52,362 nt of DNA from a bacterium. GTDB lineage: Bacteria > UBP18 > UBA7526. The notes below the pieces were generated by a model. It saw nothing but the letters and a program-made list of their open reading frames with translations. It had not been told where the DNA came from and made no database searches. Of the stretch, positions 130 to 33,052 are shown in pieces. The translations under genes and the position numbers were made by a program. The number at the start of each line of letters is the position of its first letter. Position 1 is the first letter of the stretch. Location of the stretch: assembly GCA_030616365.1 (NCBI GenBank), contig JAUWXM010000001.1, forward strand, positions 1 through 52,362, given 5' to 3'.

Positions 130-205
130 AAAATAAAGGCAGCAGGTAAAAATTGTTACTTGTTCATTGTTACTTGTAAATTGAAAAGGAAGGGAGGTGA
201 GAAGA

Positions 206-721
206 ATGAAGAGAGGGAAAGGGGATTCACCCCGCACCTTTAAGAAAAGTGCAGGACGAATACAGAAAGGTGCGGGGTTCACCCTGATTGAGTTGATGGT
301 GGTGATAGTCATCATCGGGATCTTATCTGCTGTTGCCCTACCGAGGTTCATGACCCAGCAGAGGAAGGCCAAGGAGGGTGCCGGCTGGGCAGACCTGGAT
401 GGTATGACCACGGCCATGGAGATGTACTACCTGGACTGCGACACCTATCCTACAGGTGGTTCAAAGGACGATGGATCTATTGCTCTGCTGAAGTTAAAGA
501 CTGATACGTCAACCAGCAACTGGGCTGGACCTTACATGAAGTTCAGAAGGGTTGGAGATGGTTCAGGAGGAAGTGGCGATAAGCCTATCGATCCCTGGCT
601 GAGAACCTATGGATGTGAAAGTTCCGCTACCGAATACACCATTTGGTGCCAGGGGCGGGCGGCTGCGTCTTACGTAACCGAGTATATTCCTTACTCAGGT
701 CTCGACTTCAAGAGCCCCTAA
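206..721 (+). CDS. Major pseudopilin / type IV pilin-like protein (GspG/PulG-like)
   Basis: Prepilin signal ...KGAG|FTLIELMVVIVIIGILSAVALPRF. The C-terminal GPY...DPW pattern is typical of GspG. SD gggagg lies 8 nt before ATG 206; the ORF track opens at GTG 197. Confidence 0.85.
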   Translation: MKRGKGDSPRTFKKSAGRIQKGAGFTLIELMVVIVIIGILSAVALPRFMTQQRKAKEGAGWADLDGMTTAMEMYYLDCDTYPTGGSKDDGSIALLKLKTDTSTSNWAGPYMKFRRVGDGSGGSGDKPIDPWLRTYGCESSATEYTIWCQGRAAASYVTEYIPYSGLDFKSP

Positions 722-831
722 AAGTGCCTGCCCCGTAGGCTTGTCCTTCGGGGGAGCGATTCACTTGAGATAAAACCCCGCCCCCAACTGGGAACGGGGT
801 GCAATTATATCTTTATAACAACTCTTACTTG

Positions 832-1314
832 ATGAATAAAAAGCAAGGCTTTTCGATAATAGAGTTATTGGCTGTAATATTTATTATTGCTCTTATGGCC
901 CTGGCGGGCTTTGCCATTTTCAAGGGGTTCCGGGAGACGACGAGCGTCAAGGTAGCCGCCCGGGATGTGGTGAATATCATGCGCCTCGCCCGAAGAAAAG
1001 CGATCACTGAGAGAGTAGAGTATTACGCCTTATATGATAAGGTAAATAATAAGGTATGGGTTCAACCCAAGTCATCTTATCCGCCAAAGAATCCGGATTT
1101 TGGCACAGAGCAGATATTGCCTGAGAAGGCAGTCATAGACCGTGTGACGAGCGGAGGGGGTAGCAACCCCTATCACCACACCTTTACTCCCAAGAGTACC
1201 CTGGCCCATGGTAGCGGAGGGGTATACTTAAGGGATGAGGGGGAAAAGATAAAATACCGGGTGACGGTCATAAATACTACTGCCCGGGCGAGAATCTATG
1301 ACAGCTGGCCATAA
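832..1314 (+). CDS. Minor pseudopilin, GspH/FimT-like (set A)
   Basis: MNKKQG|FSIIELLAVIFIIALMALAGF N-methylation motif. Paralogous to 3514..4275 (ARDVVNIMRLARRKA.. / ..YRVTVINTTARARIYDSW). The ORF track opens at GTG 799. Confidence 0.75.
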   Translation: MNKKQGFSIIELLAVIFIIALMALAGFAIFKGFRETTSVKVAARDVVNIMRLARRKAITERVEYYALYDKVNNKVWVQPKSSYPPKNPDFGTEQILPEKAVIDRVTSGGGSNPYHHTFTPKSTLAHGSGGVYLRDEGEKIKYRVTVINTTARARIYDSWP

Positions 1315-1317
1315 TGA

Positions 1318-1448
1318 GTAATGAAACGGAGAAAGTGGGTAGGTGAAACAGTGAAACGGAGAAGGGGAGAAACGGAGAGGGGGAGAAACGGAGAAAAAAA
1401 GAAGCTCACCGATTCACCGATTCCCCGATTCCCCGATTCCCCGATTCG
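1318..1448 (+). repeat. Dispersed repeat copy A: gaaacggaga words plus the octanucleotide c[a/c]ccgatt x5 (1407-1446)
   Basis: Aligns by eye with 3509-3610. It lies inside the 5' end of ORF 1321..1875 and is translated as ...GETERGRNGEKKKLTDSPIPRFPDSPIR. Confidence 0.8.
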
Positions 1449-1875
1449 TTTTCAGACGGGCTTCAGTCTCTTAGAGGTCATGGTTGCTGTAGTTGTCCTG
1501 GGCTTCGGCCTCCTGGCTATCATGCACCTCTTCCCCATTGGCTTAAGGGCAAGCAAGATATCCCAGGATACTACTACGGCTTCCTTCTTAGCCCAGCAGA
1601 AGATAGAGGGATTGAAGAATGTGACCTTTACTGGGGGAGGATTTGCTGATGGGGTAACCACAGAGGGTTACGATCCACCCATTCAGATTACGGTTGATAA
1701 AGTGACCTATTCCTATCCAGGATTCAAAAGGGTAACCACCATCCAAACCAAAGAAGCTGATGAACCGATACTCAAGAGGATTACGACAGAGGTCTTCTAT
1801 AAACCCTATGGTGGGGAGCGGAGCGTAAAACTGGTTACCTTGAGAACAAACTATAAAAAGACAATGAAAAAATGA
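1321..1875 (+). CDS. Minor pseudopilin, GspI/PilV-like (set A), with an unusually long basic leader; start uncertain
   Basis: ...FQTG|FSLLEVMVAVVVLGFGLLAI prepilin motif. Paralogous to 4376..4765. The only canonical in-frame starts (ATG 1321, GTGs up to about 1351) give a leader of 37 aa or more. Confidence 0.7.
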   Translation: MKRRKWVGETVKRRRGETERGRNGEKKKLTDSPIPRFPDSPIRFQTGFSLLEVMVAVVVLGFGLLAIMHLFPIGLRASKISQDTTTASFLAQQKIEGLKNVTFTGGGFADGVTTEGYDPPIQITVDKVTYSYPGFKRVTTIQTKEADEPILKRITTEVFYKPYGGERSVKLVTLRTNYKKTMKK

Positions 1876-2492
1876 AGGCCAGAGGAGTTACCTTAGTTGA
1901 ACTTTTGGTCGCGGTTACCCTACTCTCCTTAATAATGGTCGCTTTCTATACTGTCTTTAAGATGGGAACCAGGGCCTACCGGACCGGAGAGGAGAGAGTA
2001 GAACTAATTCAGAACGCGCGTATTGCCCTGGATATGATGGCCTCCCAGATACGTCAGGCCCTCCCTGAAGACGATGGCGCCGTTCCGCGCATTGAGTTTG
2101 AGATTGAGGGAGGAACGGGCAGGGAAGGCCCCCAGATCAGGTTCTCGTCCCCCATAGATAACACTTCTGGGGCAGAGGAGATTACCTTTTATCTCAACGA
2201 CTCCAATCACACCCTATATAAGAAAGTGAATAACCCTTGGGCAAAGGGGAGTGATCCTGGGTACAGCTTTCAGCAGATAACGGCTGACCTCCCTATCACA
2301 GAGACAGAGGGGGTTGTTAGCTATCTATGGTTTAATGAGAAGGAACCGGTAGGGGTGGCTCACTCCGGGATGATAAGGATTACCCTGACAGTCAAAGCCG
2401 ACCCCACAGATGATAGTGACCCCGGGACTACCCTGCACGCCATTGTCAAGAGTGCCTTCTGCTATGGAGTGGGTCTGAGCGGCGAGTTCTGA
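1872..2492 (+). CDS. Minor pseudopilin, GspJ/PilW-like (set A)
   Basis: MKARG|VTLVELLVAVTLLSLIMVAF motif. ATGA overlap with the upstream gene. Paralogous to 4778..5491. Confidence 0.75.
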   Translation: MKARGVTLVELLVAVTLLSLIMVAFYTVFKMGTRAYRTGEERVELIQNARIALDMMASQIRQALPEDDGAVPRIEFEIEGGTGREGPQIRFSSPIDNTSGAEEITFYLNDSNHTLYKKVNNPWAKGSDPGYSFQQITADLPITETEGVVSYLWFNEKEPVGVAHSGMIRITLTVKADPTDDSDPGTTLHAIVKSAFCYGVGLSGEF

Positions 2493-3448
2493 TGAAGGAA
2501 GAAAAGGGAGTGGCGGTAATCATGGCCATGTGGCTCTTAGCTGTCCTGGCCATCATCGGCACTACCTTCATCTTCATGATGCGCTTAGAACCCATCATCG
2601 CCCGCACCCATCGGGATGATATGAAAGCCCTCTACGTTGCCCAGGCGGGAATAGACCATGCGGTCTATATCCTGAAGCAGGACGTTGGGGGAGATATCGA
2701 CCATCTGGGCGACCCCTGGGCAGGTGGATTTACCGATCAGCTGCTTCTGGATGAGGCGGGGTATAGCGTAGGATATTATACGGTAGAGGTCCAGGATGAA
2801 TCGGGCAAGACAAACCTCAATACCGCCCCCAAGCCCCATCTTATGGGATTGAATCTTATGACTGAGGTACGGGCAGATGCCATCATCACTTATCGGAGTG
2901 GAGACCATGGACTCCTTGAGACCGTCGATGAGTTCTTATGTGTTCCAGAAATCACCCAGACAGTCTTTGATAGGAACCGGGAGATAATCACTGTCTATAC
3001 TGATGGATTGGTAAATCTCAATACCGCTTCCTATTCGGTACTCATGGGGATAAAGGATGGAGCAGCGAGCAGCCTGGATGCTACTGATGTAACCTCCATT
3101 ATCACCTATCGTGAAGGGGCATACAGCCCCTATGATACCCTAACCCCTCCTCCTGCCGAGCCCACGGAGAAGGCCACCGAGGTGAATAATGCCAGCGAGA
3201 TTGATAATACCGAGACAGAGTATCTCACGGGAGAGGATGCCGATGGTGGAGGAGTGGCCGCGGGCGCCGAAAAGAGGGTGGATGTCAAATCGAATGGTCT
3301 CTTTACTATAATATCGCTGGGAGAGATAAAGGACGCTTCCGGGAATACCATCGCCCAGAAGAAGATAAGGGTGGTGGTCAATCGGGAGAAGGTAACGCCG
3401 TCTGTGGAAAGCAGGGTTGAGTACTACCGAGAGGTCCCAGAGGACTAA
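2492..3448 (+). CDS. GspK/PilX-like minor pseudopilin (set A)
   Basis: N-terminal hydrophobic helix GVAVIMAMWLLAVLAIIGTTF without a G|F site. YVAQAGIDHAV motif and NLNTA helix-hairpin-helix motifs typical of GspK. TGATG overlap with the upstream gene. Confidence 0.7.
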   Translation: MKEEKGVAVIMAMWLLAVLAIIGTTFIFMMRLEPIIARTHRDDMKALYVAQAGIDHAVYILKQDVGGDIDHLGDPWAGGFTDQLLLDEAGYSVGYYTVEVQDESGKTNLNTAPKPHLMGLNLMTEVRADAIITYRSGDHGLLETVDEFLCVPEITQTVFDRNREIITVYTDGLVNLNTASYSVLMGIKDGAASSLDATDVTSIITYREGAYSPYDTLTPPPAEPTEKATEVNNASEIDNTETEYLTGEDADGGGVAAGAEKRVDVKSNGLFTIISLGEIKDASGNTIAQKKIRVVVNREKVTPSVESRVEYYREVPED

Positions 3449-3508: not shown

Positions 3509-3610
3509 GTGAAATGGAGAAAGTGAACAGGCGGGCAGGTGAAACAATGAGACGGAGAAAGGGAGAGACGGAGAAAGGGAGAAAGCTCACCGATTCCCCG
3601 ATTCCCCGAC
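3509..3610 (+). repeat. Dispersed repeat copy B (same family as 1318-1448; octanucleotide present in about 3 units)
   Basis: aggtgaaacaatgagacggagaaagggagagacggagaaagggagaaagctcaccgattccccgattccccgac aligns with copy A. Confidence 0.8.
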
Positions 3611-4275
3611 TTGCCCCGTTGGAAGCCGAAGGCTTTCCTTCGGGGTTCCCCGATTCAAAGAAAAAGGGTTTTAGTCTCCTGGAACTTATGATGGTAATCA
3701 CCATTATGGGCATTCTAATTACTTCTTCCCTCTTATTTGGGAATAATTTTTTGAATAGTACTGCGGCGAAGAATGCTACCCGGGATATCGCTTCTGTTAT
3801 GCGCATGGCGCACAGCAAGGCCATGACCCTGAGAACTAATTATTATGTGGTCTATGATGCCACTAATAAAATAGTCTGGGTTCAGGATCTCAGAGGTCCC
3901 GATGGCAAGCCGGGCGTAAAGAATGTTGATGATGATAATAATGGTGTTGTCGATGAGACCGGGGAACTGGGCTGGGCCGGTTCTGACGACTTCAATATCA
4001 ATGATCCCAATACCTGGAACCCGCTCTTTGGTAGTGAAAGAAAACTTTCCAGAAGGGTGGAGATAGATAGCGTAAACGTCGAACCTGAAGATTATGGGGG
4101 CAAAAGTGATTACCAGACAGTGACGGGAGGCTCGGGCATCGGCTATCTTCCTTTCCGTTGGAATGGGACCTCCGTCTCTGGTTCGGTCAGACTGCAGGAT
4201 AGCAGAGGCAATAATCAATATTCGGTAACGGTTATGTACACTACCAGCCGGATCAGGTTATACAGTTTTTGGTGA
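3514..4275 (+). CDS. Minor pseudopilin, GspH/FimT-like (set B), long leader; start uncertain
   Basis: ...DSKKKG|FSLLELMMVITIMGILI motif. C-terminal YSVTVMYTTSRIRLYSFW matches set A GspH. An alternative in-frame TTG at 3619 would give a 17-aa leader. Confidence 0.7.
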   Translation: MEKVNRRAGETMRRRKGETEKGRKLTDSPIPRLAPLEAEGFPSGFPDSKKKGFSLLELMMVITIMGILITSSLLFGNNFLNSTAAKNATRDIASVMRMAHSKAMTLRTNYYVVYDATNKIVWVQDLRGPDGKPGVKNVDDDNNGVVDETGELGWAGSDDFNINDPNTWNPLFGSERKLSRRVEIDSVNVEPEDYGGKSDYQTVTGGSGIGYLPFRWNGTSVSGSVRLQDSRGNNQYSVTVMYTTSRIRLYSFW

Positions 4276-4375
4276 GATTGAATGATAGGTAATGGGTTTG
4301 CCTGTTCTCCGGTTTGCCTGTTCTCCGGTTTTGAACTGGTTAACTGGATAACGAAATCACCTATCGGAGGATAGC

Positions 4376-4765
4376 GTGTTAAGGAGTAGCAAAGGGTTTA
4401 CCATTCTGGAGGTCATGATTGCTCTGGTTCTCTTGGCGTTTGGTATACTGGCTCTCCTGCGGGTGATGCCCGTATCCCTCCAAGCGAGCAAGAGGGCAGA
4501 GGAGACCACCATTGCCACCCTATTGGCCCAGCAGCAGTTAGAGAAGTGGCGGGCGTGTGATAAAGATCCCGATGCTGGAGCAACATCCTTGGGAAGCAAT
4601 GGTTCTTTCCCTGCTCCCTATGATAAGTATGAATGGTCAATAGTCACCACCAACATTGTTACCGATGTCTGGGTCTCCTCTGTAAACGTCTGGTGGCCGG
4701 TGGGGAAACCCCGAGAAGAACAGAGGGTGGTCAACCTGACGACCTATATGTTTGTTTTCCCCTAA
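4376..4765 (+). CDS. Minor pseudopilin, GspI/PilV-like (set B)
   Basis: MLRSSKG|FTILEVMIALVLLAFGILAL, then LQASKRAEETTIATLLAQQQLE parallel to the set A protein. GTG start 5 nt after ggagga. Confidence 0.75.
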   Translation: MLRSSKGFTILEVMIALVLLAFGILALLRVMPVSLQASKRAEETTIATLLAQQQLEKWRACDKDPDAGATSLGSNGSFPAPYDKYEWSIVTTNIVTDVWVSSVNVWWPVGKPREEQRVVNLTTYMFVFP

Positions 4766-4777
4766 GGAGTTTTTTTG

Positions 4778-5491
4778 ATGTCTAAAAACCGTTTGAAGCG
4801 TTTCCTATCTCCAACGGGGTTTACCCTAATGGAACTCTTAGTAGCCATGGTTATTACGGTTCTCTTAGTAGCAGCGCTCTTTAATGTCTTTGACTTAGCG
4901 GGCCGTGCCTGGCAGAAAGGAGAGGCCCGTACCCAGAGATACCAGAACCTCCGGCAGGCCCTGGACAGGATGAGCGATGATATTCGTAGTGCTATCCTGC
5001 TCAGCATTGGCAATAATCCGGGTAAGGAAGATGGTATTAAATTCTATGGCGAGAATGATTTTAATTCTGAGGGGGATAGATTGAGCTTCATCCCCGTCTC
5101 CCATCCTCCGGATGGCTGGGATTATGGAAGCGACTATGGTGTTTCTCCTCCTGAACTATGTTTTGACTGCTGTGAGATAGGCTACAATGTCACGGGAACT
5201 ACACTCTATAGGAGGAAGCAGGAGAAGAGTGTCCCGGATGGCGAAGTCACCAACGGCGGAAGATCTGATCCACTGGCGGAACATATTACGAGATTAGATT
5301 TTACCTACTATGAGGCGGACGGCACCGAACATAACACCTGGGATTCCAGTCCTGCTGGAGCTTCCTATTGTCAAGACAAACTGCCCACCAGAGTCAGGAT
5401 TGAACTTACGGCTCAGGCAGACCTGGCCCGGGAGCAGAAGGAAGAGACTTTCACCACCGAGGTCTGGCTGGGCCAGGCTAATTTCCAGTAG
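4778..5491 (+). CDS. Minor pseudopilin, GspJ/PilW-like (set B)
   Basis: ...SPTG|FTLMELLVAMVITVLLVAALF, then RQALDRMSDDIRSA parallel to the set A GspJ-like protein. The ORF track opens at TTG 4775. Confidence 0.75.
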   Translation: MSKNRLKRFLSPTGFTLMELLVAMVITVLLVAALFNVFDLAGRAWQKGEARTQRYQNLRQALDRMSDDIRSAILLSIGNNPGKEDGIKFYGENDFNSEGDRLSFIPVSHPPDGWDYGSDYGVSPPELCFDCCEIGYNVTGTTLYRRKQEKSVPDGEVTNGGRSDPLAEHITRLDFTYYEADGTEHNTWDSSPAGASYCQDKLPTRVRIELTAQADLAREQKEETFTTEVWLGQANFQ

Positions 5492-5506
5492 ATTAAGGAG
5501 GTTAAG

Positions 5507-7006
5507 ATGAAGATGCTAAAGAGAGAGAAGAAGAAAGGGATAGCCCTTATTATGGCCCTCTGGATAATGGTCGCTCTTCTGGTCATCTGCTCTTCTTTTG
5601 TCTATATGATGCGCATAGAGTTGCGCATCGCCAAGGACTACACCCATGGGGTCCAGGCCCATTACTTAGCCAGGGCCGGGATAGCCCGCGCCCTGGGGGA
5701 ACTCAATGCAGATAATGTTGATGCCCCACCCAATTATATAAAAACGGATAGTCTGCATGAGAACTGGTTCACTACTTTTAGTGAAAACTTTGGATATACT
5801 ACTGCAGACTATGATGAAATGGTCTGGGACGAGACGTGGTTTCCTCTGGGGGAGGGGGGTTATCAGGTCCGTCTACTAGACGAGTCCGGGATGCACAATA
5901 TTAATGCTATGGAGGGAGGGATACTCCATCCCACTAGTACGGTTGGTATGGATGACCTATTTGGAGAGACAGTAGCAGGCGAGCATAAGGCGTGTAGGAT
6001 TCGTGATTACCGGGATGACGACATCATTGCCATGAGTAATACTGGTAGTGGAACTGGCTGGGATAGTCCTGACTGCAAAAATAAACCCTATGATACCATA
6101 AGAGAGATTCAGAAGGTAAAGGATATCAATGTCGATATGAGTGGAGATGGTATCGATGATAATCCTCTGGCCCTGTATACCAATGAACTGACCGTTCATT
6201 CCCAGGATTATGATACTGACCTAGACGGCGCGGCAAGGCTAAATCTCAATCTCGCCACCCAAGCCGAGATTGCGTTTGTCCTAAATAACCCCGGCGAAGA
6301 CGCCGACCCCACCGAGGCAGCACTCTCTATATGGAATGGGATTCCCTGGTCAACTGTGGGATGTATCGATGTAGAGCTAACCGGGACTACTGATGAGAGA
6401 TCAATAACAATGAAAAAGGTTGCCGATAAGTTCACCGTAGCCCCTCCTGTCGCCGGTGCGATATATTATAAACCGGACACTCTCCCCAATGTTATTTTAG
6501 GGCCCATCAATATTAATACTGCCCCTAAGAAGTCACTTTGCTCTCTAATCTATATTGGCCCGACATGTGCAAAATATATCATTGAGACACGGCATTATTA
6601 TGGGGGCAGAGAACCCTCCGCCGCAAGGAAAGAAGATGCTGTAGGGAGTCCCACCTTTACCTATGGCGTTGCCAACAGCGGAGAGTATGGAAGAGGGGAG
6701 CTTGTATTAACTTATTGGATTGGTTCCCTCACCTTTGACCACATGTCTGACCAGGTTACGGTAAGGTCCGACCGCTTCAGAATCGTCTCCACAGGAAGAG
6801 TGGGCACTGATGGGAATGGCGATGGCAAGATTGACCCCGGTACTGCAGCGGATACCGTTTTAGCCCAGAGAAAGATTGAGGTCGTGGTGGACCGCCACTA
6901 CCATGATCAAAATCCAACGGCTAGCGGAATTGATACTGGGGTTTTCCATACCATGGGCCCCTTTGAAATCCTCTACTGGTCGGAGACCGTGCCGGAGTTG
7001 TTTTGA
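5507..7006 (+). CDS. GspK/PilX-like minor pseudopilin (set B, enlarged, 499 aa)
   Basis: GIALIMALWIMVALLVICSSFVYMMRIELRIA...YLARAGIARA parallels the set A GspK-like N-terminus. LNLNLATQ and ININTAPKKSL HhH-type motifs. Confidence 0.7.
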   Translation: MKMLKREKKKGIALIMALWIMVALLVICSSFVYMMRIELRIAKDYTHGVQAHYLARAGIARALGELNADNVDAPPNYIKTDSLHENWFTTFSENFGYTTADYDEMVWDETWFPLGEGGYQVRLLDESGMHNINAMEGGILHPTSTVGMDDLFGETVAGEHKACRIRDYRDDDIIAMSNTGSGTGWDSPDCKNKPYDTIREIQKVKDINVDMSGDGIDDNPLALYTNELTVHSQDYDTDLDGAARLNLNLATQAEIAFVLNNPGEDADPTEAALSIWNGIPWSTVGCIDVELTGTTDERSITMKKVADKFTVAPPVAGAIYYKPDTLPNVILGPININTAPKKSLCSLIYIGPTCAKYIIETRHYYGGREPSAARKEDAVGSPTFTYGVANSGEYGRGELVLTYWIGSLTFDHMSDQVTVRSDRFRIVSTGRVGTDGNGDGKIDPGTAADTVLAQRKIEVVVDRHYHDQNPTASGIDTGVFHTMGPFEILYWSETVPELF

Positions 7007-11106: not shown

Positions 11107-11131
11107 AATGAATATAAATAAGGAGAAATTA

Positions 11132-18801: not shown

Positions 18802-18829
18802 AAAAAAAAGGGGGGAAACCCCCCTTTTT
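18802..18829 (+). terminator. Rho-independent terminator (bidirectional type)
   Basis: A8-GGGGGG-aaa-CCCCCC-T5, 30 nt after the stop at 18771. Confidence 0.85.
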
Positions 18830-20882: not shown

Positions 20883-21028
20883 AAGTTCCGATACCTCAAA
20901 ATAGATTTAGAGTAATAGTGATCAGTGATCGGTAATCGGTCAGTTAAAAAAATTAACTATTCAACATTTTAACTCATTAACTTGTTAACTTATCAACTTG
21001 TTAACTATCCGAGCAAAGCGAGGGTGAG

Positions 21029-25319: not shown

Positions 25320-25435
25320 GAAGTAACAAGTTAACAAGGATACAAGTTAACAAGTTCCAAGTCGTCCCAAAACTTATTGACTTATTAACTAATCAACTTG
25401 TTAACGTATTAACTCGCGACCGAAGGGAGCGTGGG

Positions 25436-26491
25436 ATGGTTGAGGCCTATCAAGTAGAGAAAGAGCCAGAGAAACCAAAGGAAGTAAACCCCGCCCCTAT
25501 GAGGGGCGGGGTAAAGAGGTCGAATAAGGGTTTCTTCTCTTCAGTCATTATTCTACTTTTGCTTGCTTCCTCTGCCTGGGGATTGGCATTAAATGCCAAT
25601 TGGCGCCAAGCGCTCTATGCCTCCTTTAAGGAGGCCTCTCTTCCCACTCCCGTAGAGACCAAAGAAGCATATCGACCGCCTAAAGAATTGACTATTACCT
25701 ACTTCGACGTTGGCCAGGGATTGGGCCATCTCATTCAGATTCCTTCAGGAAAGGTGATTATGTATGATGCGGGAGAGGGAGCGGACCCGGACAATAAGTA
25801 TAGCAAGTATCGGGGTGCGGGGGGAAAGGCTGTTCTCCCGGTCTTAAGAGGAGAGCATATTAAAAAGATTGATGTTATCGTTAGTTCCCATCCCCATAGC
25901 GATCACCAGGGAGGATTCCTTTCCATATTGAGTAGCGATGAGTTTGAGATAGGGGAAGTATTAGACCCGGGTATGGTCCATCCCACCCCCACCTATAACG
26001 CCTTTCTGGAACTGATAGAGGCAAAAGGGATACCCTATCGCATTGTGAGGGATGGGGAGATACTGGACTGGGGCCCGGAGGTCTTTGTCCAGGTCCTCTC
26101 TCCTCCTAAAGGCCAGTTATGGACTCATGCCAATGATAACTCAGTGACTATAAAGTTAATCTATGGCAAGACCAGTTTCCTTTTCACGGGAGATATTGAG
26201 AAGTTAGCCATCAATAGACTCATCAATGAGTATGGCCCGAGAATAAAGGCAGACGTGGTTCAGGTTCCCCATCATGGCTCCAATACCTCAAACGATAGGA
26301 ACTTCCTTAGATTAGTAGGGGCCTCCCATGCCGTGACCAGTGGTACTGGAGGACCACCATTTGGTCATCCCACCCCAGAGACCGTGAAGAGGTGGAGAGA
26401 GATCGGGGCCCAGGTGCATCAGACCCATCTGGATGGAGATATTACCATCATCAGTGATGGAAAGAATATAAGAGTAAAGACCTTGAGGTAA
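25436..26491 (+). CDS. Free-standing membrane-anchored/exported metallo-beta-lactamase, ComEC C-terminal-domain type, metal motif intact
   Basis: TM FFSSVIILLLLASSAWGLAL. ITYFDVGQG...VSSHPHSDHQGG...FTGDIE...VPHHGSNTSN...FGHP. An alternative ATG exists at 25499. Confidence 0.8.
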   Translation: MVEAYQVEKEPEKPKEVNPAPMRGGVKRSNKGFFSSVIILLLLASSAWGLALNANWRQALYASFKEASLPTPVETKEAYRPPKELTITYFDVGQGLGHLIQIPSGKVIMYDAGEGADPDNKYSKYRGAGGKAVLPVLRGEHIKKIDVIVSSHPHSDHQGGFLSILSSDEFEIGEVLDPGMVHPTPTYNAFLELIEAKGIPYRIVRDGEILDWGPEVFVQVLSPPKGQLWTHANDNSVTIKLIYGKTSFLFTGDIEKLAINRLINEYGPRIKADVVQVPHHGSNTSNDRNFLRLVGASHAVTSGTGGPPFGHPTPETVKRWREIGAQVHQTHLDGDITIISDGKNIRVKTLR

Positions 26492-26526: not shown

Positions 26527-26610
26527 TAAGCGCCAAGTCGCTAAAGTTTAAAACAAAAACGCCAAATTATTTTGGCGCTTTTGCGAACTTTTAGCGCTTT
26601 AGCGTTTAGC

Positions 26611-26632
26611 GCTTTGGCGGTTGCAAAGGAGG
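26611..26632 (+). promoter_or_regulatory. Conserved SD-fused box gctttggcggttgcaaaggagg
   Basis: Identical to 28962-28983. Followed in both loci by tgaagaga. Confidence 0.6.
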
Positions 26633-28917
26633 TGAAGAGAACGAGAAAAATATTTTTGGTATTATTCATTTTATTCATTAGTGCTTTATTTCTATTGCCA
26701 GAAGCCCAGGCAAAAGAGGAGTTTGTTAAGGCTTTAGTATTGAGCGCCCGGAATGAGAAGGGTCCCATCGAAAGGAACCTCTTTTACTATCCCGCCCAGA
26801 CCCAACACCTTTCCCTTAAGGTTCTGGGGGGCGTTCATAAGGGAAAGATAATCGATCTTGAGAATCACCTCGTTGGTCAGCGGGGATACGATACTCTCTT
26901 AGAAACTAAAGAAAAGGCCCTCATCCAGATTGCCACTACTCCTCAGGGGAAGATTTCTCATATTACCCTGGTTAGTTATCTCAGGGATAAGTTCATCTAT
27001 CTTCTTTTAGCGGTCTTTCTATTTTTTCTTATCCTGATCGGGGGATTGAGGAAGGGATTACGAACGGTAACCGCTCTCATGATTACCGTGGGCTTAATCT
27101 TCTTCGTTATGTTCCCCCTCTTTAAGATAGGTTCTCCTCCTTTATTGACCGGTATTATCATCTCTCTTCTGGTTAGTATCATTGTTCTCTATTTAGTGGG
27201 GGGTGGCGGGGTGAAGAGCCTCTCCGCCATCTTAAGCACCATCATCGGCGTAGCCATTGTTGCTGGGATAGCCTTATTGGGCGCTCACTTCATGCGCCTT
27301 AACGGTTATCATATGGAGGAGTCGAAGACCCTGGTCTTTTTACTCCGTCATACCCCTCACTGCGCTCTGAGCGACTTACGAGGGTTACTCTTAGTGGGGA
27401 TCATCATCGGCGGCTTGGGGGTGATGATGGATGTGGCCATCTCTGTCGCTTCCGCAGTCTATGAGATAAGGGATGCCCATCCCGGAATTGACCAGAAGGA
27501 ACTAATGGGAAGGGGAATGAATGTGGGCAAAGATATCATGGCCACCATGGCCAATAGCCTCATCTTAGCCTATCTTGGCCTCACCCTCCCTCTCATCTTA
27601 GCCTTCCGGGTCCTGCATACCCCGTTCTCGCGCATCTCTAACTGGGCCTTCTTAGATATTGAGGTCCTGGCCGCTTTGGCAGGAAGTATTGGCTTTGTCT
27701 TAGTAATCCCTTTAACTGTAGTAATAACTACCAGCCTCTTATTTAAGAGAATCCCTTTCCCCAAGACTAAAGTAGCCGGGGTCATTCTTTTACTATTTCT
27801 ATCTTTAGGAGTGGGTTTTAGCGGTGCCCAGGCTTCTCATCAGGAGGAACTCCTGCCCGACTCCGATCTGCGCAGTCATCCCCTGGTCTTCGTTTATGAG
27901 AGAGGGGACGAGTTCGCTAAGGGAAGGGTCCTGGAGATAGAGAAAAGGGGAGAGGACCAGGAGCTTATTACCTTTAAGGTCTTAGAAGGAAGGCATAGAG
28001 ATAAGATAGTAACCATACCAAATTATCTATCTGGAAAACCACAGTATGACTTTATCTTTCAAAAGAATGACTCTGCCCTTCTCCAGGTATCCCAGGGGGA
28101 GTTCTATATCGCAGACTATGTCCGGGATAGGTTCTTGATTATTCTATCAGGTATATTTCTCGTTCTCCTCATCCTGGTGGGAAGATTGAAGGGTCTGCGT
28201 ACCGCCTTAGCCTTAGGACTAACTTTGGCTCTGATTCTTTTTCTTTTCCTGCCTCTTATCGAGGCCGGTCATTCTCCAATATTAATAAGTATCCTGGTCT
28301 CTATCTTAGCCACTTTCATTACCCTTTATCTGGTAGCCGGTTTTGGGATTAAGGCCACCAGTGCCATTCTGGGCACCTCGCTTAGCATCTTCATGGTGGC
28401 CGGACTATCGCTACTGGCCGGGCATCTCCTGAGAATCACGGGCTTTAGTTCTTCCGGCATCCGGATGCTCAACTACTTCTCCCGCCATTATGGAAAGGGT
28501 CTGATCAACGATATGCCCGGGATTGTTACCTCAGTAATTATCATCGGTGCCTTGGGGGTAGTTATGGATGTGGCCATTAGTGTCTCCTCCAGCATTCAGG
28601 AGATAAAGGGGGCCTCTCCCCGGATTAGTCAGGGGGAACTGATTAGAAGGGGATTCAATGTGGGAAGGGACATCATGGCTACTATGGCCAATAGCCTCAT
28701 CTTAGCCTATATCGGAGGAAGCCTATTATTAGTAATGGTCTACCTAGTAGGAGAGTTCCCTTTCCTTCAAATAATCAATACCGAGTTCATTGCCTTAGAA
28801 ATAACCCGCGGCCTGATAGGGAGTCTGGGCTTTGTCTCTGTTATCCCGGCTACCGCTATTATCAGCGGTATGTGGCTATCAAGGTCCGCGGGATATAAAA
28901 CAAAGACCGTGAGGTAA
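26632..28917 (+). CDS. Duplicated (tandem-fused) YibE/F-family membrane protein
   Basis: Two halves, each with a soluble N-domain then a polytopic YibE/F core (GVMMDVAISVASAVYEI...GKDIMATMANSLILAYLG and GVVMDVAISVSSSIQEI...GRDIMATMANSLILAYIG). Start uncertain (GTG 26632, TTG 26614 or TTG 26572). Confidence 0.8.
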   Translation: MKRTRKIFLVLFILFISALFLLPEAQAKEEFVKALVLSARNEKGPIERNLFYYPAQTQHLSLKVLGGVHKGKIIDLENHLVGQRGYDTLLETKEKALIQIATTPQGKISHITLVSYLRDKFIYLLLAVFLFFLILIGGLRKGLRTVTALMITVGLIFFVMFPLFKIGSPPLLTGIIISLLVSIIVLYLVGGGGVKSLSAILSTIIGVAIVAGIALLGAHFMRLNGYHMEESKTLVFLLRHTPHCALSDLRGLLLVGIIIGGLGVMMDVAISVASAVYEIRDAHPGIDQKELMGRGMNVGKDIMATMANSLILAYLGLTLPLILAFRVLHTPFSRISNWAFLDIEVLAALAGSIGFVLVIPLTVVITTSLLFKRIPFPKTKVAGVILLLFLSLGVGFSGAQASHQEELLPDSDLRSHPLVFVYERGDEFAKGRVLEIEKRGEDQELITFKVLEGRHRDKIVTIPNYLSGKPQYDFIFQKNDSALLQVSQGEFYIADYVRDRFLIILSGIFLVLLILVGRLKGLRTALALGLTLALILFLFLPLIEAGHSPILISILVSILATFITLYLVAGFGIKATSAILGTSLSIFMVAGLSLLAGHLLRITGFSSSGIRMLNYFSRHYGKGLINDMPGIVTSVIIIGALGVVMDVAISVSSSIQEIKGASPRISQGELIRRGFNVGRDIMATMANSLILAYIGGSLLLVMVYLVGEFPFLQIINTEFIALEITRGLIGSLGFVSVIPATAIISGMWLSRSAGYKTKTVR

Positions 28918-28983: not shown

Positions 28984-28991
28984 TGAAGAGA

Positions 28992-29657
28992 ATGAGAAAG
29001 AGCATTGTTTTGATGGGAATTTTGGCTCTGGGTCTCATCCTCTTGGCAGGATGTCGCCAGAGACCGCAGGAAGTGGAACTGGAGAAGAAGGAATTGGTCC
29101 CTCTTGAGGAGATGGTTCCTTTGGAACCTATGGCAGAAAAGGCCCCTATGGTTGCTGAGGCACCTCCTGCTGTAGCACCAACCCCAGTCGCACCAGCTGC
29201 TGTGACCGGAAAGATAAACATCAACACCGCCACTTCCTCTCAATTAGAGAGCTTGCCCGGTATCGGACCAGTCAAGGCTCAGGGCATCATCGCTGGCCGT
29301 CCTTACTCAAGCATCGAAGACCTGGATAAAGTTCCCAGAATCGGACCCAAGACCATAGAGAATCTGAGGCCCTACATTACTGTTGGAGAAGCTGCTGCCC
29401 CGGCAGCGGCACCAACCATTGCTCCGGCTGTTATTCCAACCGTTGCTCCTGCTGTGGCACCAGCTGTTGTGGCCGGAAAGATAAACATCAATACCGCCAC
29501 TCAGGCCCAGCTGGAGAGTCTTCCCGGTATCGGACCAGTCAAGGCCCAGGGCATCATCGCTAATCGACCTTACTCAAGCATCGAAGACCTGGATGAAGTT
29601 CCCAGAATCGGACCCAAGACCATAGAGAATCTGAGGCCCTACATCACTGTCGAGTAA
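28992..29657 (+). CDS. Lipoprotein with two tandem ComEA-type HhH modules
   Basis: Lipobox MRKSIVLMGILALGLILLAG|C. KININTAT..QLESLPGIGPVKAQGIIA.RPYSSIEDLD.VPRIGPKTIENLRPYITV occurs twice. The ORF-track start 28938 lies in the repeat box. Confidence 0.85.
   Translation: MRKSIVLMGILALGLILLAGCRQRPQEVELEKKELVPLEEMVPLEPMAEKAPMVAEAPPAVAPTPVAPAAVTGKININTATSSQLESLPGIGPVKAQGIIAGRPYSSIEDLDKVPRIGPKTIENLRPYITVGEAAAPAAAPTIAPAVIPTVAPAVAPAVVAGKININTATQAQLESLPGIGPVKAQGIIANRPYSSIEDLDEVPRIGPKTIENLRPYITVE
29208..29651 (+). repeat. Intragenic duplication: 177-nt HhH-coding unit at 29208-29384 and 29475-29651 (period 267 nt)
   Basis: Long identical runs, for example gttcccagaatcggacccaagaccatagagaatctgaggccctacat in both copies. 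Confidence 0.9.
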
Positions 29658-29937: not shown

Positions 29938-30615
29938 ATGTTCAAATTATCCACTCAGGAATCGATTATCGTCCTCTGCCTAATCGGTGCCATTCTCTTG
30001 GGGGGTGTCATCATGCTGACCAGAAGACCCCCTCCCATCCCACCCGAAGCAGAACATCTGGTAACCCTGGAGAGTATTGCGGCCGGCCCAAGGAAGACCA
30101 TCATCCACATTACCGGAGCGGTGAATAAGCCCGGGGTCTATCAGTTTGATGAGGGAACCCGGGTGATCGAAGCCATCAAGGTCGCCGGAGGGGCGAAGAA
30201 GGGAGCCATCCTGGATATTCTGAACCTTGCCCAACCCCTGATTGATGGTTCAAAGATTGTTGTTCCCCAGAAGTTTGACGTAGCGGCCTTCCGAAAGAAA
30301 CTCCTCTCCTATGGCCCAGAGCATGTCTATACCACAGAGGAATTGAAGTTAGCCTATCTTGACCTTGAAAAGGAGGAAGAGAGGAAGGAGGAAGAGAAGA
30401 AGAAAACAAAGAAGAAAGCCAAGGCAGAGGCCGGGAAGATAAACATCAATACCGCCAGCCCGGCCCAGCTGGAATCCCTACCCGGTATCGGGCCCAAGAG
30501 AGCCCAGGCCATCATTGCCAATCGACCCTATTCCAGCCCGGAGGAGATTACCAAGGTCCATGGGATCGGTCCCAAGATCTATGGGGCGTTGAAGGATAAG
30601 ATTACTGCGAACTGA
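29938..30615 (+). CDS. comEA: Canonical ComEA (TM + SLBB + HhH)
   Basis: TM IIVLCLIGAILLGGVIML. SLBB IHITGAVNKPGVYQFDEGTRVIEAIKVAGG. HhH KININTASPAQLESLPGIGPKRAQAIIANRPYSSPEEITKVHGIGPKIYGALKDKI. Confidence 0.9.
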   Translation: MFKLSTQESIIVLCLIGAILLGGVIMLTRRPPPIPPEAEHLVTLESIAAGPRKTIIHITGAVNKPGVYQFDEGTRVIEAIKVAGGAKKGAILDILNLAQPLIDGSKIVVPQKFDVAAFRKKLLSYGPEHVYTTEELKLAYLDLEKEEERKEEEKKKTKKKAKAEAGKININTASPAQLESLPGIGPKRAQAIIANRPYSSPEEITKVHGIGPKIYGALKDKITAN

Positions 30616-30670
30616 AGAGACGCGCCCGCCTGCCGGCGAGGCAGGAATCAACGCGAATAAGGAGACACGA

Positions 30671-33052
30671 ATCAACGCGAATCTAAAACAGGAATATTCG
30701 CGAATAAGATACCCGCTTGTCGCTATTATCCTCGTCTATATCTCAGGAATCATCCTGGGGCATCTATTAGACATCTCCCTCCCTTCTCTACTCTCCATTC
30801 TCGCTCTCCTTTTAATCCTTTTCTTCCTTGCTTTCTGGAGGAAGAAACCTACCATCTCCACTCTTCTCTTGGGTATTCTGCTTCTTCTCGCCAGCCTCCT
30901 CTACCATGACATTACTCTCGAGCGTATCACCAGAGGAGAGATAACCCCCTTTCTCAATAAAGGCTGGGTTGAGATTTTAGGTACTATCGATCGTCTGCCC
31001 GAGATTAAAAAAGATAGAATCCATTTAATCGTTAAGACAGAGAAGATATCGTTCAAGAAGAAAGAATTCTCAGTCAGAAGCAGAATCCGGGTATCTCTCC
31101 CGAAAGGTAAGACCTCCCTTAATTATGGAGACAGGCTCAGGATCAGGGGAGAATTAATCTCTCCTCCTGGAGCCAGGAATCCCGGAGGCTTCAGTTACCG
31201 GAATTACTTAGCAACCCAGAAGATATCTGCTTTAGTAAATCTGGTCGTTGATGAGCAGATAGAAAATATTGGAAAAGCAAGGGTCAATCCCTTCTTCAGG
31301 ATTGCTTTCTATCTCCGGAAGCGCTTGGTTGAGACCATTGACCATACCCTCCCTTCCCGCGAAGGCTCGGTATTAAAGGGTATCCTTTTAGGAGAAAGAG
31401 GAGAGCTCCCTTCCACCCTTCGCCAGGCATTCATTGCTACTGGAGTGGCTCATGTCTTAGCAGTCTCTGGCCTCCACGTTGGCCTCATCGTGATCTTCTT
31501 CCATTATGGTCTCTTTCGTCTGTTTCGTCTACCCAACAAGGGAAGTGCTCTCCTTACCCTCTTCATCATTATTCTCTACTGCTTTATGACCGGTTGTCGG
31601 CCCCCTGTGGTGCGCGCCACGATTATGTTCGGTCTTTTTCTGCTTGCCTCTTGCCTGGGACGAAAAAGAGAGGTCTATACTACCTTAGCCCTGGCTGGTC
31701 TGGTCATCCTCTTAATCAATCCCCTTACCCTGTTCGACCTTAGATTCCAGCTCTCTTTTGCTGCCGTGCTTTCCATTCTATATCTCTATCCCAGGATCTG
31801 GTCCAGACTAAAGTTCCTCTCCTCCTATCCCGCAGGTTTGATAAGTGTCTCCCTTGCTGCCTGGGTAGGGGTAGTCCCCTTAGTTGCCTATCACTTCAAC
31901 TATTTTACTCCGGTAACCATCTTAGCCAATCTCTTTGTCATTCCTTTAGTTACCATTGTCGCCGCCTTAGGCTTTCTAGCCACCATCTGCTCCTTCTTTC
32001 TTCCCTTGGCCCAGCTCTTCTCTTCCTCTAACTGGCTCTTTCTCACTATCCTAATAAAGGTCATCCATCTCTTCAGCCACTTTCCCGGAGCCGGGATAAG
32101 AGTTGTTACCCCTTCTCTTTCTTTCATTAGTATCTATTACTTAGGCATTGTCGGGCTAATAAATTTTAAACGTTCCCTTTTAATAAGAAAAGCAATCTCT
32201 ACGGGAGCCCTGTGCCTGATAGCCATCTTCGTCTGGGGAAATATCTTTGCCTCTCAAGATAAGTTACTGAAGGTTACTTTCTTAGATGTTGGTCAGGGGG
32301 ATTCAGCCTTCATCCAGTTCCCTGATAGAAAGAGTATGCTCATTGACGGAGGAGATGGTAGGCTTGATATTCTACCTTCTTATCTCTGGGATGAGAGAAT
32401 AAGGAGAATCGATTACTTAGTATTAACCCATCCCCATGCCGATCATGTGACCGGACTCATCAACGTTCTCTCCTATTTCAAGGTAGGCGAGGTCTGGGAC
32501 AGTGGTCAGGAATTTACTTCACCAGAATATGAGAAATTTTTGAGGATTATTGACGACAAAAAAATTGCCTACAAAATAGTCCGGGCGGGTCAGAGGCTAT
32601 CCATAATGCCTGGGGTGGGGATGGATATCCTCCATCCTCAAGAAAGATTCCTGAAGGGTGGCGGTTCAGAACCAAATAATAACTCCATAATAATAAGACT
32701 CCTCTATAAAAAGGTAAGCCTTCTCTTTACCGCTGATATTGAGAAAGAAGCAGAGGATCTTTTAGAGAGAAAATATGGTACTCAACTACATAGCACTATC
32801 CTTAAGGTTCCCCATCAAGGATCTAAGACCTCAAGCACTTTAAAATTTTTAGAGAAAGTTTCCCCAGAATGTGCTATAATCAGCGTTGGTGCCCGGAATC
32901 CCTTCGGTCATCCCAATCCCGCAGTCCTCAAGAGATACCAGAAGATGAAGATTAAGACATATCGAACGGATGAGCGTGGGGCAATAATCATAACCACAGA
33001 CGGGGAGAAATACTGGGTGAGGACCATCTCCCAGACCTGGAGGAATAGATGA
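30671..33052 (+). CDS. comEC: ComEC/Rec2 paralogue 2 (OB region + competence domain + intact MBL domain); start codon unresolved
   Basis: GVAHVLAVSGLHVG. LKVTFLDVGQGDS...LVLTHPHADHVTG...VPHQGSKTSS...FGHP. The ORF track starts at TTG 30869, but the frame is open from 30593. Positions 30710-30868 encode two further hydrophobic helices. ATC 30671 lies 6 nt after AAGGAG. Confidence 0.85.
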   Translation: MNANLKQEYSRIRYPLVAIILVYISGIILGHLLDISLPSLLSILALLLILFFLAFWRKKPTISTLLLGILLLLASLLYHDITLERITRGEITPFLNKGWVEILGTIDRLPEIKKDRIHLIVKTEKISFKKKEFSVRSRIRVSLPKGKTSLNYGDRLRIRGELISPPGARNPGGFSYRNYLATQKISALVNLVVDEQIENIGKARVNPFFRIAFYLRKRLVETIDHTLPSREGSVLKGILLGERGELPSTLRQAFIATGVAHVLAVSGLHVGLIVIFFHYGLFRLFRLPNKGSALLTLFIIILYCFMTGCRPPVVRATIMFGLFLLASCLGRKREVYTTLALAGLVILLINPLTLFDLRFQLSFAAVLSILYLYPRIWSRLKFLSSYPAGLISVSLAAWVGVVPLVAYHFNYFTPVTILANLFVIPLVTIVAALGFLATICSFFLPLAQLFSSSNWLFLTILIKVIHLFSHFPGAGIRVVTPSLSFISIYYLGIVGLINFKRSLLIRKAISTGALCLIAIFVWGNIFASQDKLLKVTFLDVGQGDSAFIQFPDRKSMLIDGGDGRLDILPSYLWDERIRRIDYLVLTHPHADHVTGLINVLSYFKVGEVWDSGQEFTSPEYEKFLRIIDDKKIAYKIVRAGQRLSIMPGVGMDILHPQERFLKGGGSEPNNNSIIIRLLYKKVSLLFTADIEKEAEDLLERKYGTQLHSTILKVPHQGSKTSSTLKFLEKVSPECAIISVGARNPFGHPNPAVLKRYQKMKIKTYRTDERGAIIITTDGEKYWVRTISQTWRNR

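Follow-up and report, generated by a model that had tools for sequence, protein, structure and literature searches.

The window analysed here is the whole 52,362-nucleotide stretch of contig JAUWXM010000001.1 (assembly GCA_030616365.1), from a bacterium of the candidate lineage UBP18 (UBA7526). Between positions 197 and 33,052 it carries 27 open reading frames (ORFs) on the + strand, all found at their listed coordinates and named g1 to g27 below (Table 1). We favor, with moderate confidence, the interpretation that this region is a lineage-specific juxtaposition of three modules, namely a pilus module (g1–g18), a module built around a "long" ComEC (g20), and a canonical comEA-comEC module (g26–g27), which together might take up DNA from the medium and bring it into the cytoplasm. 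The long-ComEC module, with its own nuclease, DNA-binding proteins, and tiny membrane protein, appears to be undescribed. A preliminary description of this DNA had proposed one expanded machine for DNA uptake. Part of its accessory layer is indeed linked across lineages, but the linkage to the pilus is seen only in UBP18 and the YibE/F gene is an insertion, so that we describe three juxtaposed modules instead.

Domain assignments were checked with the Pfam, NCBIfam, and PADLOC hidden Markov model (HMM) libraries, and structures with AlphaFold2 (AF2) and Foldseek. Nearly all of the domains previously proposed for 197–33052 are borne out by the HMM searches, including two ComEC genes (21029–24259 and, as the listed ORF, 30869–33052). 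The first of these, g20, matches the Pfam families Competence (3.4e-35) and DUF4131 (8.6e-16) and the ComEC structure 30bt (phmmer, 9e-40), and scores 186.4 against TIGR00361, just under the cut-off of 190.05. In a search with g20, the close relatives form a small clade, after which come hundreds of ComECs with lengths of 930–1170 aa and ~30% identity; those with a name belong to Lindowbacteria, Elusimicrobia, Dependentiae, Hydrogenedentota, and Kiritimatiellia.

In an alignment of the C-terminal domain, the metal ligands of the metallo-β-lactamase (MBL) fold are lost in g20, which reads NPSLEH, SNLG, and PAHG, the motif-4 Asp and the motif-5 His being gone. Since ComEC uses HxDxDH as well as HxHxDH, we scored the first motif by alignment as H-x-[HD]-x-D-H; several canonical ComECs without HxHxDH are nevertheless intact in this alignment, in the HxDxDH form. 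None of the 120 long family members examined has the motif, typical replacements being SPLPER and SFKPEH, and the degenerate motif is itself conserved in the family as P-E-[RH]. The AF2 model of g20 has a predicted local distance difference test score (pLDDT) of 79.8 overall and >90 in the MBL fold, and its C-terminal domain superposes on the ComEC MBL crystal structure 9ic4 with a TM-score of 0.80. The loss of ligands throughout the family, together with the retention of the fold, marks the g20 domain, as far as alignment and model can tell, as a conserved pseudo-enzyme.

The same loss of catalytic motifs, together with the TIGR00361 score below cut-off, would be expected if the long ComEC were a paralogue in decay or with a new function that has given up DNA transport, acting for example as a membrane scaffold or as a transporter of another polymer, and if its neighbors formed a nuclease defence or DNA-degradation island; g19, g21, and g23 do match the defence-associated PADLOC models Cas4, HEAT_CxxC_PD-DEXK, and LmuA/Avs1a MBL. 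We regard this as improbable, since the family is old and constrained. Fifty columns of the Competence domain are invariant in 30 long ComECs at ~30% identity, the invariant channel residues extend across at least six lineages, the degenerate motif is retained, and the AF2 model is confident. Moreover, the PADLOC matches are to generic nuclease domains and not to complete systems, for which reason we rejected a defence island, and no other defence or mobility genes are present. A mobile island was likewise rejected, as the window shows no integrase or transposase and has an even GC content; neither tRNAs nor Rfam families were found in it.

Compared with the Neomoorella/Moorella ComEC (cryo-EM structures 32ks/30bu/30bt; MBL 9ic4; PMC13539106, PMC8579336), both g20 and g27 have the OB fold, the Competence channel, and the MBL fold. 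The differences of g20 are the replacement of HPDADH by NPSLEH, the loss of Asp and His in motifs 4 and 5, a length greater by ~275 aa, and 163 inserted residues that map between NS5 and TM8 of the solved protein and comprise two predicted transmembrane (TM) helices and a helix-hairpin-helix (HhH) element (HHH_3 29.2 bits). In the published topology, the OB fold and the MBL domain are periplasmic, TM4 leads inward, and a cytoplasmic helix lies between TM10 and TM11 (PMC13539106). The insertion point is periplasmic on this topology and the number of added helices is even, from which the HhH element would stay on the periplasmic face, the placement that we prefer. The HhH part of the insertion is limited to the UBP18 clade, and Lindowbacteria-type proteins have a 90-residue insertion of two TM helices without HhH.

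That the long ComEC belongs to a distinct module is indicated by its neighbors in other lineages. Using a profile built from 30 long ComECs, we scanned JGI metagenomes and searched the ORFs of 92 loci (L001–L092) with the window proteins, classing each ComEC as long or canonical by its higher score against g20 or g27, respectively, which gave 17 long and 65 canonical loci outside UBP18. The long-type ComECs are mostly 27–37% identical to one another, and the loci therefore represent independent lineages. The most constant partner of the long ComEC is the 55-aa membrane protein. Among loci with upstream DNA, a small membrane ORF immediately precedes the ComEC gene in 10 of 14 long loci but in none of 59 canonical ones (Fisher p = 1.6e-9). 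An intact stand-alone MBL is found in 7 of the 17 long loci versus 0 of the 65 canonical loci (Fisher p = 5e-6), and the partner MBLs, from six lineages, have intact motifs in all cases.

An HhH protein is encoded between the long ComEC and the MBL in six loci, with the order small ORF, long ComEC, 2xHhH, MBL in L012; small ORF, long ComEC, HhH, HhH, MBL in L026; long ComEC, HhH, MBL in L015, L023, and L030; and the latter followed by a tandem PDDEXK nuclease in L024. The order is HhH, MBL, and then long ComEC in L020, the MBL lies 4 kb downstream of the long ComEC in L025, and a tandem PDDEXK gene, the small ORF, and the long ComEC follow one another in L011 (Lindowbacteria). Canonical loci have instead an overlapping comEA-comEC pair, as in g26–g27. 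This linkage across deeply divergent lineages argues that the long ComEC, the HhH proteins, the exported MBL, and sometimes the tandem Cas4-like nuclease form a functional unit. We found no account of the long/pseudo-MBL ComEC family, of the small partner, or of the trans MBL partner in the searchable literature, which is not proof of novelty. The preliminary description had singled out 18868–29657 as an accessory layer without a counterpart known to it; of the genes there, those for the long ComEC, HhH, and MBL recur together elsewhere, and YibE/F is no part of the conserved system. The degenerate MBL domain of the long ComEC and the conserved small membrane partner had been overlooked.

A membrane-anchored protein of ~440 aa with DHH-like motifs is encoded downstream of the stand-alone MBL in four long loci (L012 14649–15983, L023 5504–6088, L024 15628–16956, L026 15491–16771). 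Its motifs read H-x-D-x-D-G ... D ... DHH, with DNH in L012, and it has no homologue in the window. In L012, L023, and L030, a pyrimidine-nucleoside phosphorylase gene lies immediately upstream of the module, together with DeoC in L012. In L019, an 850-aa protein with MBL, fn3, Big_5, and Por_Secre_tail domains, sorted by the type IX secretion system, is encoded upstream of the long ComEC (3–2555), and a canonical ComEC starts 1.7 kb downstream of the long one, so that both types stand side by side with a secreted MBL.

In the window, the exported MBL corresponds to g23, whose best NCBIfam matches are to the ComEC C-terminus. Both g23 and g27 have the complete set of metal ligands, i.e. HPHADH or HPHSDH, then [AG]DIE, then PH[QH]GS. 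The free-standing ComEC-type MBL, the tandem Cas4-like nuclease (by AF2 and Foldseek), and the duplicated YibE/F protein of the preliminary description are all confirmed. As for its three ComEA-type proteins, three HhH proteins are present, but only that at 29938–30615 (g26) has the SLBB and HhH architecture of ComEA, g22 and g25 having HhH modules only. The score of g26 against TIGR01259 is 76, below that subfamily's cut-off of 152.

Pairs of the g26–g27 type occur in ~20 unrelated loci. The listed ORF of g27 starts at TTG 30869, and conserved N-terminal TM helices are encoded in frame upstream, before the first ATG/GTG/TTG. The only plausible candidate, and thus the probable start of g27, is an in-frame ATC at 30671 with an AGGAG six bases before it, which would give a product of 793 aa like its relatives. 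At 30596–30868, the upstream sequence resembles the N-terminus of the relatives in another frame, after a small duplication ("ESTRI...ESTRI"), which suggests a local frameshift or duplication combined with a rare start codon. The presence of two ComECs in one genome is unusual, as the preliminary description had stated: in the survey of Pimentel & Zhang 2018, a single Competence-domain protein or fragment was found in 89% of proteomes and 96% of genomes, the ComECs covered 417–872 aa, and HHH_3 was not among the listed co-occurring domains (PMC6299819).

The pilus block starts with a GspG-like major prepilin, followed by two colinear sets of minor prepilins that are paralogous one to one (g2/g6, E 9e-25; g3/g7, 9e-17; g4/g8, 4e-14; g5/g9, 5e-16); a PDB sequence search with g9 gave no match. 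The window proteins include PilM, PilN, PilO, and an AMIN-bearing PilQ secretin, as in type IVa pili, and do not include the combination of GspC, GspL, GspM, and a GspD with N0–N3 only that characterizes type II secretion systems (T2SS). Matches to T2SSL and T2SSM are sub-threshold and overlap stronger PilM/PilO matches, and T2SSM_b reaches its cut-off but lies inside the PilO match. The "PilP-like" assignment of 10129–11106 (g12) is not confirmed: neither Pfam (no PilP match) nor PDB supports it, and only its position speaks for it. In the PilM part of g10 (~aa 255–310), a proline-rich tandem insertion (PPEKPPEIPPSPEK...) lies within the actin-like fold.

No PilB, PilT, or PilC is encoded in the window, as was noted before, but this absence is most likely due to where the assembly broke off. 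Only 196 nt separate the contig start, which falls within a perfect 43-nt tandem repeat, from the pilin gene, and relatives carry the missing genes exactly there. Directly adjoining the orthologous pilin genes of L093 and L094 (pilins 53–66% identical) lies the series PilB-PilT-PilB-PilC-PhnD-like, consisting of a PilB with MshEN and T2SSE domains, a PilT-type ATPase of 354 aa, a second PilB, a PilC/GspF protein, and a PhnD-like binding protein. The 43-nt repeat occupies 1–147 in ~3.4 copies (unit AAAATAAGCCAAGCAAGTTGTCTCTTTTACTCGCTTCGCTCAT) and probably explains the assembly break between the pilC/phnD-like genes and the pilin gene. Given the PilT-type ATPase and PilB/PilC of the relatives, a retractile pilus of type IVa-like character, built from a GspG-like pilin, describes the system better than a T2SS pseudopilus does.

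The intergenic or 5' regions before g3 (1314–1444) and g6 (3502–3609) are made up of purine-rich octamers in tandem, first (GAAACGGA/GAGAAAGG)n and then (CGATTCCC)n. Read in frame, they give g3 and g6 N-terminal extensions of ~45 residues ("RRRGETERGR...LTDSPIPRFPDSP") ahead of the G|F cleavage site. Octamer arrays are also intergenic in the relatives L005 and L006, and such period-8 arrays seem to be a feature of the UBP18 lineage.

The closest named relatives are three metagenome-assembled genomes, "bacterium UBP18_UBA7526", which NCBI files under unclassified candidate phyla, HyVt-354, and KR13_S3.mb.88. The order of genes from PilO to the second ComEC is retained in relatives whose long ComEC is 70–83% identical to g20. 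In both L001 (a 449-kb JGI contig, 70%) and L002 (an ENA contig, 78%), PilO is followed by the PilP-position gene, TPR/AMIN, HEAT, secretin, TPR, (GAF), tandem PDDEXK, the 55-aa ORF, and the long ComEC, and then by a 134–141-aa membrane protein, HhH, MBL, HhH protein(s), ComEA, ComEC, dCTP deaminase, and AllH. L005 has the same order from the secretin through the second ComEC, and L003, L004/L007, and L006 have parts of it. The conserved linkage that the preliminary description proposed to look for in related genomes is thus found, and within the UBP18 lineage the clustering exceeds chance.

Nevertheless, the neighborhood of pilus and ComEC genes might be incidental, i.e. the pilus might serve adhesion, motility, or type-II-like secretion and the 33-kb "supercluster" might be an accident of one clade's gene order. 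We consider this rather unlikely, although several observations fit it. None of ~75 loci outside UBP18 has pilus genes less than 10 kb from ComEC, the major pilin is GspG-like, and the content of the junction varies, the GAF gene being absent in L001 and L002 having extra genes in its pilus block, between the TPR/AMIN and HEAT genes. Every sizeable ORF of the entire 52-kb contig is on the + strand, among them polA, coaE, rho, and rpmE, and co-directionality is therefore a property of the contig and not special to the cluster. The earlier wording of an uninterrupted array was overstated, and a strong terminator-like hairpin at 18803–18829 separates the pilus block from the ComEC block. L002, however, does not share this hairpin, and an overlap of its GAF and PDDEXK genes couples both blocks translationally. 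Further against an accident, the junction is retained in the relatives listed above, a PilT-type retraction ATPase is encoded in L093 and L094, and in all Gram-negative transformation systems studied, type IV pili work together with ComEA and ComEC. TTAACT repeat arrays upstream of g20 and g23, and of pilB in L093, could point in the same direction, though they may be a repeat element and not an operator.

If the region is a juxtaposition of three cooperating modules, as we favor, DNA uptake could proceed as follows. The pilus filament would capture double-stranded DNA and retract it through the secretin, the pilus ATPases and the platform protein presumably being encoded just beyond the contig start. 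By analogy with competence systems, the HhH proteins would hold the DNA in the periplasm. In the canonical module, periplasmic ComEA would bind the DNA, the MBL domain of g27 would degrade one strand, and the other would pass the Competence channel. The long module would be a second, "split" importer, in which g23 might supply strand degradation in trans, the dead MBL domain of g20 might serve as a scaffold or DNA guide, and the UBP18 channel would carry a built-in periplasmic HhH element. More speculatively, the tandem Cas4-like nuclease (here, in Lindowbacteria, and in L024), the T7-endonuclease-I-like protein (here), and the DHH-like protein (elsewhere) could act on the imported strand, and these nucleases, together with the nucleoside phosphorylase and DeoC neighbors, could mean that the long module feeds degradation or salvage and not recombination. 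The dCTP deaminase, AllFGH, PNP, and amidohydrolase genes that follow the cluster fit this salvage idea, as neighbors only.

Two readings of the long module have to be weighed here. Tentatively, we suggest that the long ComEC, the 55-aa partner, the HhH proteins, and the exported MBL acting in trans might represent a widespread second type of DNA importer for "DNA-as-food", apart from the coexisting transformation ComEC. The channel protein of this importer would retain a pseudo-nuclease domain, and the imported strand would pass to membrane-proximal cytoplasmic nucleases and nucleoside-catabolic enzymes. Candidate loci are found in UBP18, Lindowbacteria, and several metagenomic lineages, and relatives of the long ComEC are annotated as Elusimicrobia-, Kiritimatiellia-, and Hydrogenedentota-type. 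Alternatively, the long module might be a true importer for transformation, a redundant or differently regulated second channel whose nucleases are repair or recombination enzymes trimming incoming DNA. The strong conservation of the channel residues would agree with this, as would the HhH and MBL partners, which mirror the functions of ComEA and ComEC, and the membership of g19 in the Cas4/AddB family of end-processing nucleases used in recombination. It is less readily reconciled with the nucleoside-catabolic genes that abut the module in three loci, with the DHH-like protein in four, with the dCTP deaminase, PNP, and AllFGH-type genes that follow in the window, or with the lack of linked DprA, RecA, or SSB in any of the loci examined, and we hold it to be possible but doubtful.

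Several points weigh against our interpretation of the region as a set of cooperating modules for DNA import. All of the functions proposed here are read from sequence comparison, predicted models, and analogy. The adjacency of pilus and ComEC genes is confined to one clade and may be a historical accident, and the predicted hairpin splits the pilus block from the ComEC block in the window. DprA, ComF, ComM, RecA, and PilD are all absent from the window, and in the L093/L094 loci, PilD is also absent from the ~10 kb that lie upstream. The long ComECs of ~1150 aa (L014, L018, L021, L022) have the small ORF wherever upstream DNA exists, but no adjoining MBL or HhH gene. Hydropathy and the positive-inside rule alone would put the HhH loop of g20 in the cytoplasm, in contrast to the periplasmic placement preferred above. 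As for the nucleases, g21 is without the canonical catalytic Lys, the DHH-like protein scores only 24.5 and 18.5 bits against Pfam DHH, below threshold, and tandem PDDEXK genes in Riflebacteria, Tritonobacter, and one JGI lineage (L008–L010) lie away from ComEC in 3/3 contexts. The latter led us to reject the tandem PDDEXK as an obligate partner of ComEC, the linkage being real but sporadic.

Each half of g19 has the D...D/E-x-K and QxxxY motifs and four invariant Cys, all 8 Cys being invariant in 51 homologues. Its AF2 model (pLDDT 90.6) matches ACE1, AdnAB/AddAB nuclease domains, Cas4, Exo5, RecE, and Dna2 in Foldseek, and its score against TIGR00372 (Cas4) is 48.6 bits for a cut-off of 65, which together would place it in the wider Cas4/AddB family and not among Cas4 orthologues. 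It has no signal peptide or TM segment and is presumably cytoplasmic. Homologues of g19 are widespread, and adjoin the long ComEC in UBP18, L011, and L024 in differing orders. In L010, the tandem version stands in a repair context, the row polA-rhomboid-fpg-PDDEXK-coaE (1667–8407), and in the window a single-domain Cas4-like PDDEXK_1 paralogue (45682–46512) lies immediately upstream of polA-coaE (46572–49976), which suggests a housekeeping repair role for this family.

The membrane-anchored PD-(D/E)XK-like protein that had been proposed (g21) is supported by a family profile, which matches T7 endonuclease I (E 9e-4) and the PADLOC "HEAT_CxxC_PD-DEXK" nuclease domain (1e-19). In the alignment with T7 endonuclease I, the acidic residues E20, D55, and E65 of that enzyme correspond to E48, D78, and E89 of g21, the position of its Lys67 is occupied by Trp (IEYWG), and a nearly invariant K106 lies further downstream. 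As a module, the C-terminal domain is common (2053 representatives at E <1e-3), and elsewhere it is fused to UvrD, SF1, and DEAD helicases. The charge distribution indicates that the globular domain is probably cytoplasmic.

The duplicated YibE/F membrane protein (g24) is absent from L001, L002, and L005. The g23–g25 intergenic segment, including the Shine-Dalgarno sequence, is duplicated around it in pieces that are 94–95% identical (26476–26529/28902–28955 and 26605–26648/28956–28999), from which we conclude that YibE/F is a recent insertion, and we rejected it as part of a conserved system. In the upstream copy, the position of the g25 ATG reads ACG.

The ~85 nt upstream of g20 and g23 are ~79% identical and both contain TTAACT octamer arrays; codons 1 to 5 (MVEAY) are also common to both genes. 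The octamer pattern has 7 matches in the window versus 0 expected, and arrays are also found before the long ComEC in L006 (3149–3172) and before pilB in L093 (2361–2392). An element of ~210 nt with internal inverted repeats, essentially 100% identical, lies upstream of the long ComEC in L006 (~2825–3095) and upstream of pilB in L094 (~1700–1905). The L006 copy is interrupted by a nested palindromic insertion of 66 nt, and Rfam has no match to the element. These arrays and this element could reflect a common regulon or a shared leader, or equally a dispersed repeat resembling miniature inverted-repeat transposable elements, and we count them for neither. The leaders of g20, g23, and pilB as structured RNAs are unsupported, with folding z-scores of −0.4 to −2.3 and no Rfam match.

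Directly 3' of the canonical comEC lies a dCTP deaminase gene (33619–34143), as in L001 (19177–19695) and L002 (19685–20203). It is followed in the window by AllH/AllG, CoA-ligase (AllF-type in relatives; oxamate carbamoyltransferase), PNP, amidohydrolase, and cyclase genes, and an aldehyde:ferredoxin oxidoreductase gene is also present on the + strand.

Table 1. Features of the window between positions 197 and 33,052.
Feature	Position	Strand	Basis
g1, major prepilin, GspG-like, G|FTLIE cleavage motif	197..721	+	Pfam T2SSG 6.4e-10, N_methyl 3.6e-8; homologues annotated GspG
g2–g5, minor prepilin set 1 (H-, I-, J-, K-like; g5 = PilX_N + T2SSK/HHH_3)	799..3448	+	N_methyl matches, T2SSK 2.6e-7
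g6–g9, minor prepilin set 2 (weak GspH, I-like, T2SSJ, K-like 499 aa)	3514..7006	+	Pfam and pairing with set 1
g10, PilM-PilN fusion with Pro-rich tandem insert	7205..9049	+	PilM_2 3e-59, PilN 2e-12; same fusion in L093
g11, PilO	9412..9957	+	PilO 4e-17
g12, single-pass membrane protein at PilP position	10129..11106	+	Position only; 343-aa gene at same place in L001
g13, secreted protein, three Ig-like repeats	11108..12379	+	Weak Big_1 match; signal peptide read from sequence
g14 (TPR + AMIN) and g15 (HEAT-repeat), accessory proteins	12376..14143	+	Pfam; kept in L001, L002
g16, PilQ-type secretin, AMIN-STN-Secretin_N-Secretin	14140..16218	+	Secretin 5.5e-37, AMIN 2.7e-10
g17, TPR protein at PilF/PilW-like position	16306..17532	+	TPR families; kept in L001, L002
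g18, sCache + GAF sensor, variable	17539..18771	+	Pfam; absent in L001
Hairpin between g18 and g19, 11-bp G+C stem (GGGGGGAAACCCCCC), then T-run/U-run, intrinsic-terminator-like	18803..18829	.	
g19, tandem Cas4/AddB-type PD-(D/E)XK nuclease, two 4-Cys clusters	18868..20493	+	Two PDDEXK_1 stretches, 2.7e-62
55-aa single-pass membrane protein, invariant Gly in TM helix, (S)N-x-x-(Y/F)-Y motif	20621..20788	+	Conserved ORF, overlooked earlier
Array of ~7 TTAACT octamer repeats just upstream of g20	20953..21008	+	Sequence
g20, long ComEC, 1076 aa: OB/DUF4131, Competence with 2-TM + HhH insertion (aa 442–604), C-terminal MBL fold	21029..24259	+	Pfam, alignment, AF2
g21, 139 aa, N-terminal membrane anchor, PD-(D/E)XK-like (T7 endonuclease I-like) domain	24346..24765	+	Family profile; kept in L001–L007
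g22, membrane-anchored HhH (ComEA-type DNA-binding) protein	24771..25319	+	HHH_3 3.3e-14, TM segment
Array of ~5 TTAACT octamer repeats just upstream of g23	25377..25416	+	Sequence
g23, signal-anchored exported stand-alone ComEC-type MBL, all catalytic motifs intact (HPHSDH, GDIE, PHHGS)	25436..26491	+	Alignment, NCBIfam
g24, duplicated YibE/F membrane protein, window-specific	26572..28917	+	YibE_F 1e-133
g25, lipoprotein (LAGC), two HHH_3 modules	28992..29657	+	HHH_3 7e-39, two stretches
g26, canonical ComEA, TM + SLBB + HhH	29938..30615	+	SLBB 5.6e-11, HHH_3 7e-17
g27, canonical ComEC, intact MBL (HPHADH), probable start ATC 30671	30671..33052	+	TIGR00361 302.5 bits, cut-off 190.05

Among known systems, the DNA translocators of Thermus thermophilus, Neisseria, and Vibrio resemble the window in their minor-pilin sets, PilM/N/O, AMIN-secretin, TPR accessory protein, ComEA with SLBB and HhH, and ComEC with OB, Competence, and MBL parts. 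Their genes are spread over several loci, with single-copy ComEC and ComEA, whereas the UBP18 genes are contiguous, an arrangement that is unusual but limited to one clade. The window differs further by its GspG-like major pilin, duplicated minor-pilin set, PilM-PilN fusion, and second ComEC system, and by PilD, DprA, and ComF not being seen in it. The T2SS pseudopilus shares the T2SSG, T2SSJ, and T2SSK matches and the order G then H-I-J-K, but the window has a platform of the PilM/N/O type, a secretin with AMIN and STN, and, in relatives, a PilT-like ATPase, and GspC/GspL were not found. The Cas4/AddB/ACE1 Fe-S PD-(D/E)XK nucleases share with g19 the fold, the catalytic motifs, and 4-Cys clusters, which g19 has in both halves. 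In contrast to them, g19 is a covalent tandem without a helicase or Cas partner, linked to ComEC in three lineages.

In Streptococcus pneumoniae, EndA is a separately encoded, membrane-anchored extracytoplasmic nuclease that degrades the non-transported strand for the ComEC channel. This is the closest conceptual precedent for the proposed trans nuclease, although EndA has a ββα-Me fold unrelated to MBLs, whereas the nuclease proposed here belongs to the ComEC-type MBLs, with a dead version of that fold retained in the channel. The comE operon of Bacillus subtilis (comEA-comEB-comEC) resembles the g26–g27 pair and its surroundings in L001 and L002, in that a gene for a (deoxy)cytidine-nucleotide deaminase accompanies the pair. 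In the window, this is a dCTP deaminase (DCD, dUTPase-like fold) encoded after comEC, unlike ComEB, which is a dCMP deaminase encoded between the two genes.

Of the components of natural transformation, only ComEC is, to our knowledge, universal, and it is generally regarded as a channel and nuclease in one, self-contained and present in single copy. The long ComECs point to a large, deeply branching family in uncultured phyla that has a dead nuclease fold, an MBL and HhH proteins encoded separately, and an almost obligatory tiny membrane protein. If our interpretation is true, they would offer a natural "split" ComEC for dissecting the cooperation of the MBL, the OB fold, and ComEA, which is now studied structurally (PMC12455585, PMC13539106), and the 55-aa protein would be a candidate for a new DNA-channel subunit. 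The contiguous pilus-ComEA-ComEC arrangement would provide a compact gene set for heterologous reconstruction. With both kinds of ComEC in one genome, these bacteria would also open to testing a molecular route by which extracellular DNA in sediments and the subsurface might serve as a nutrient, a use that has long been debated.

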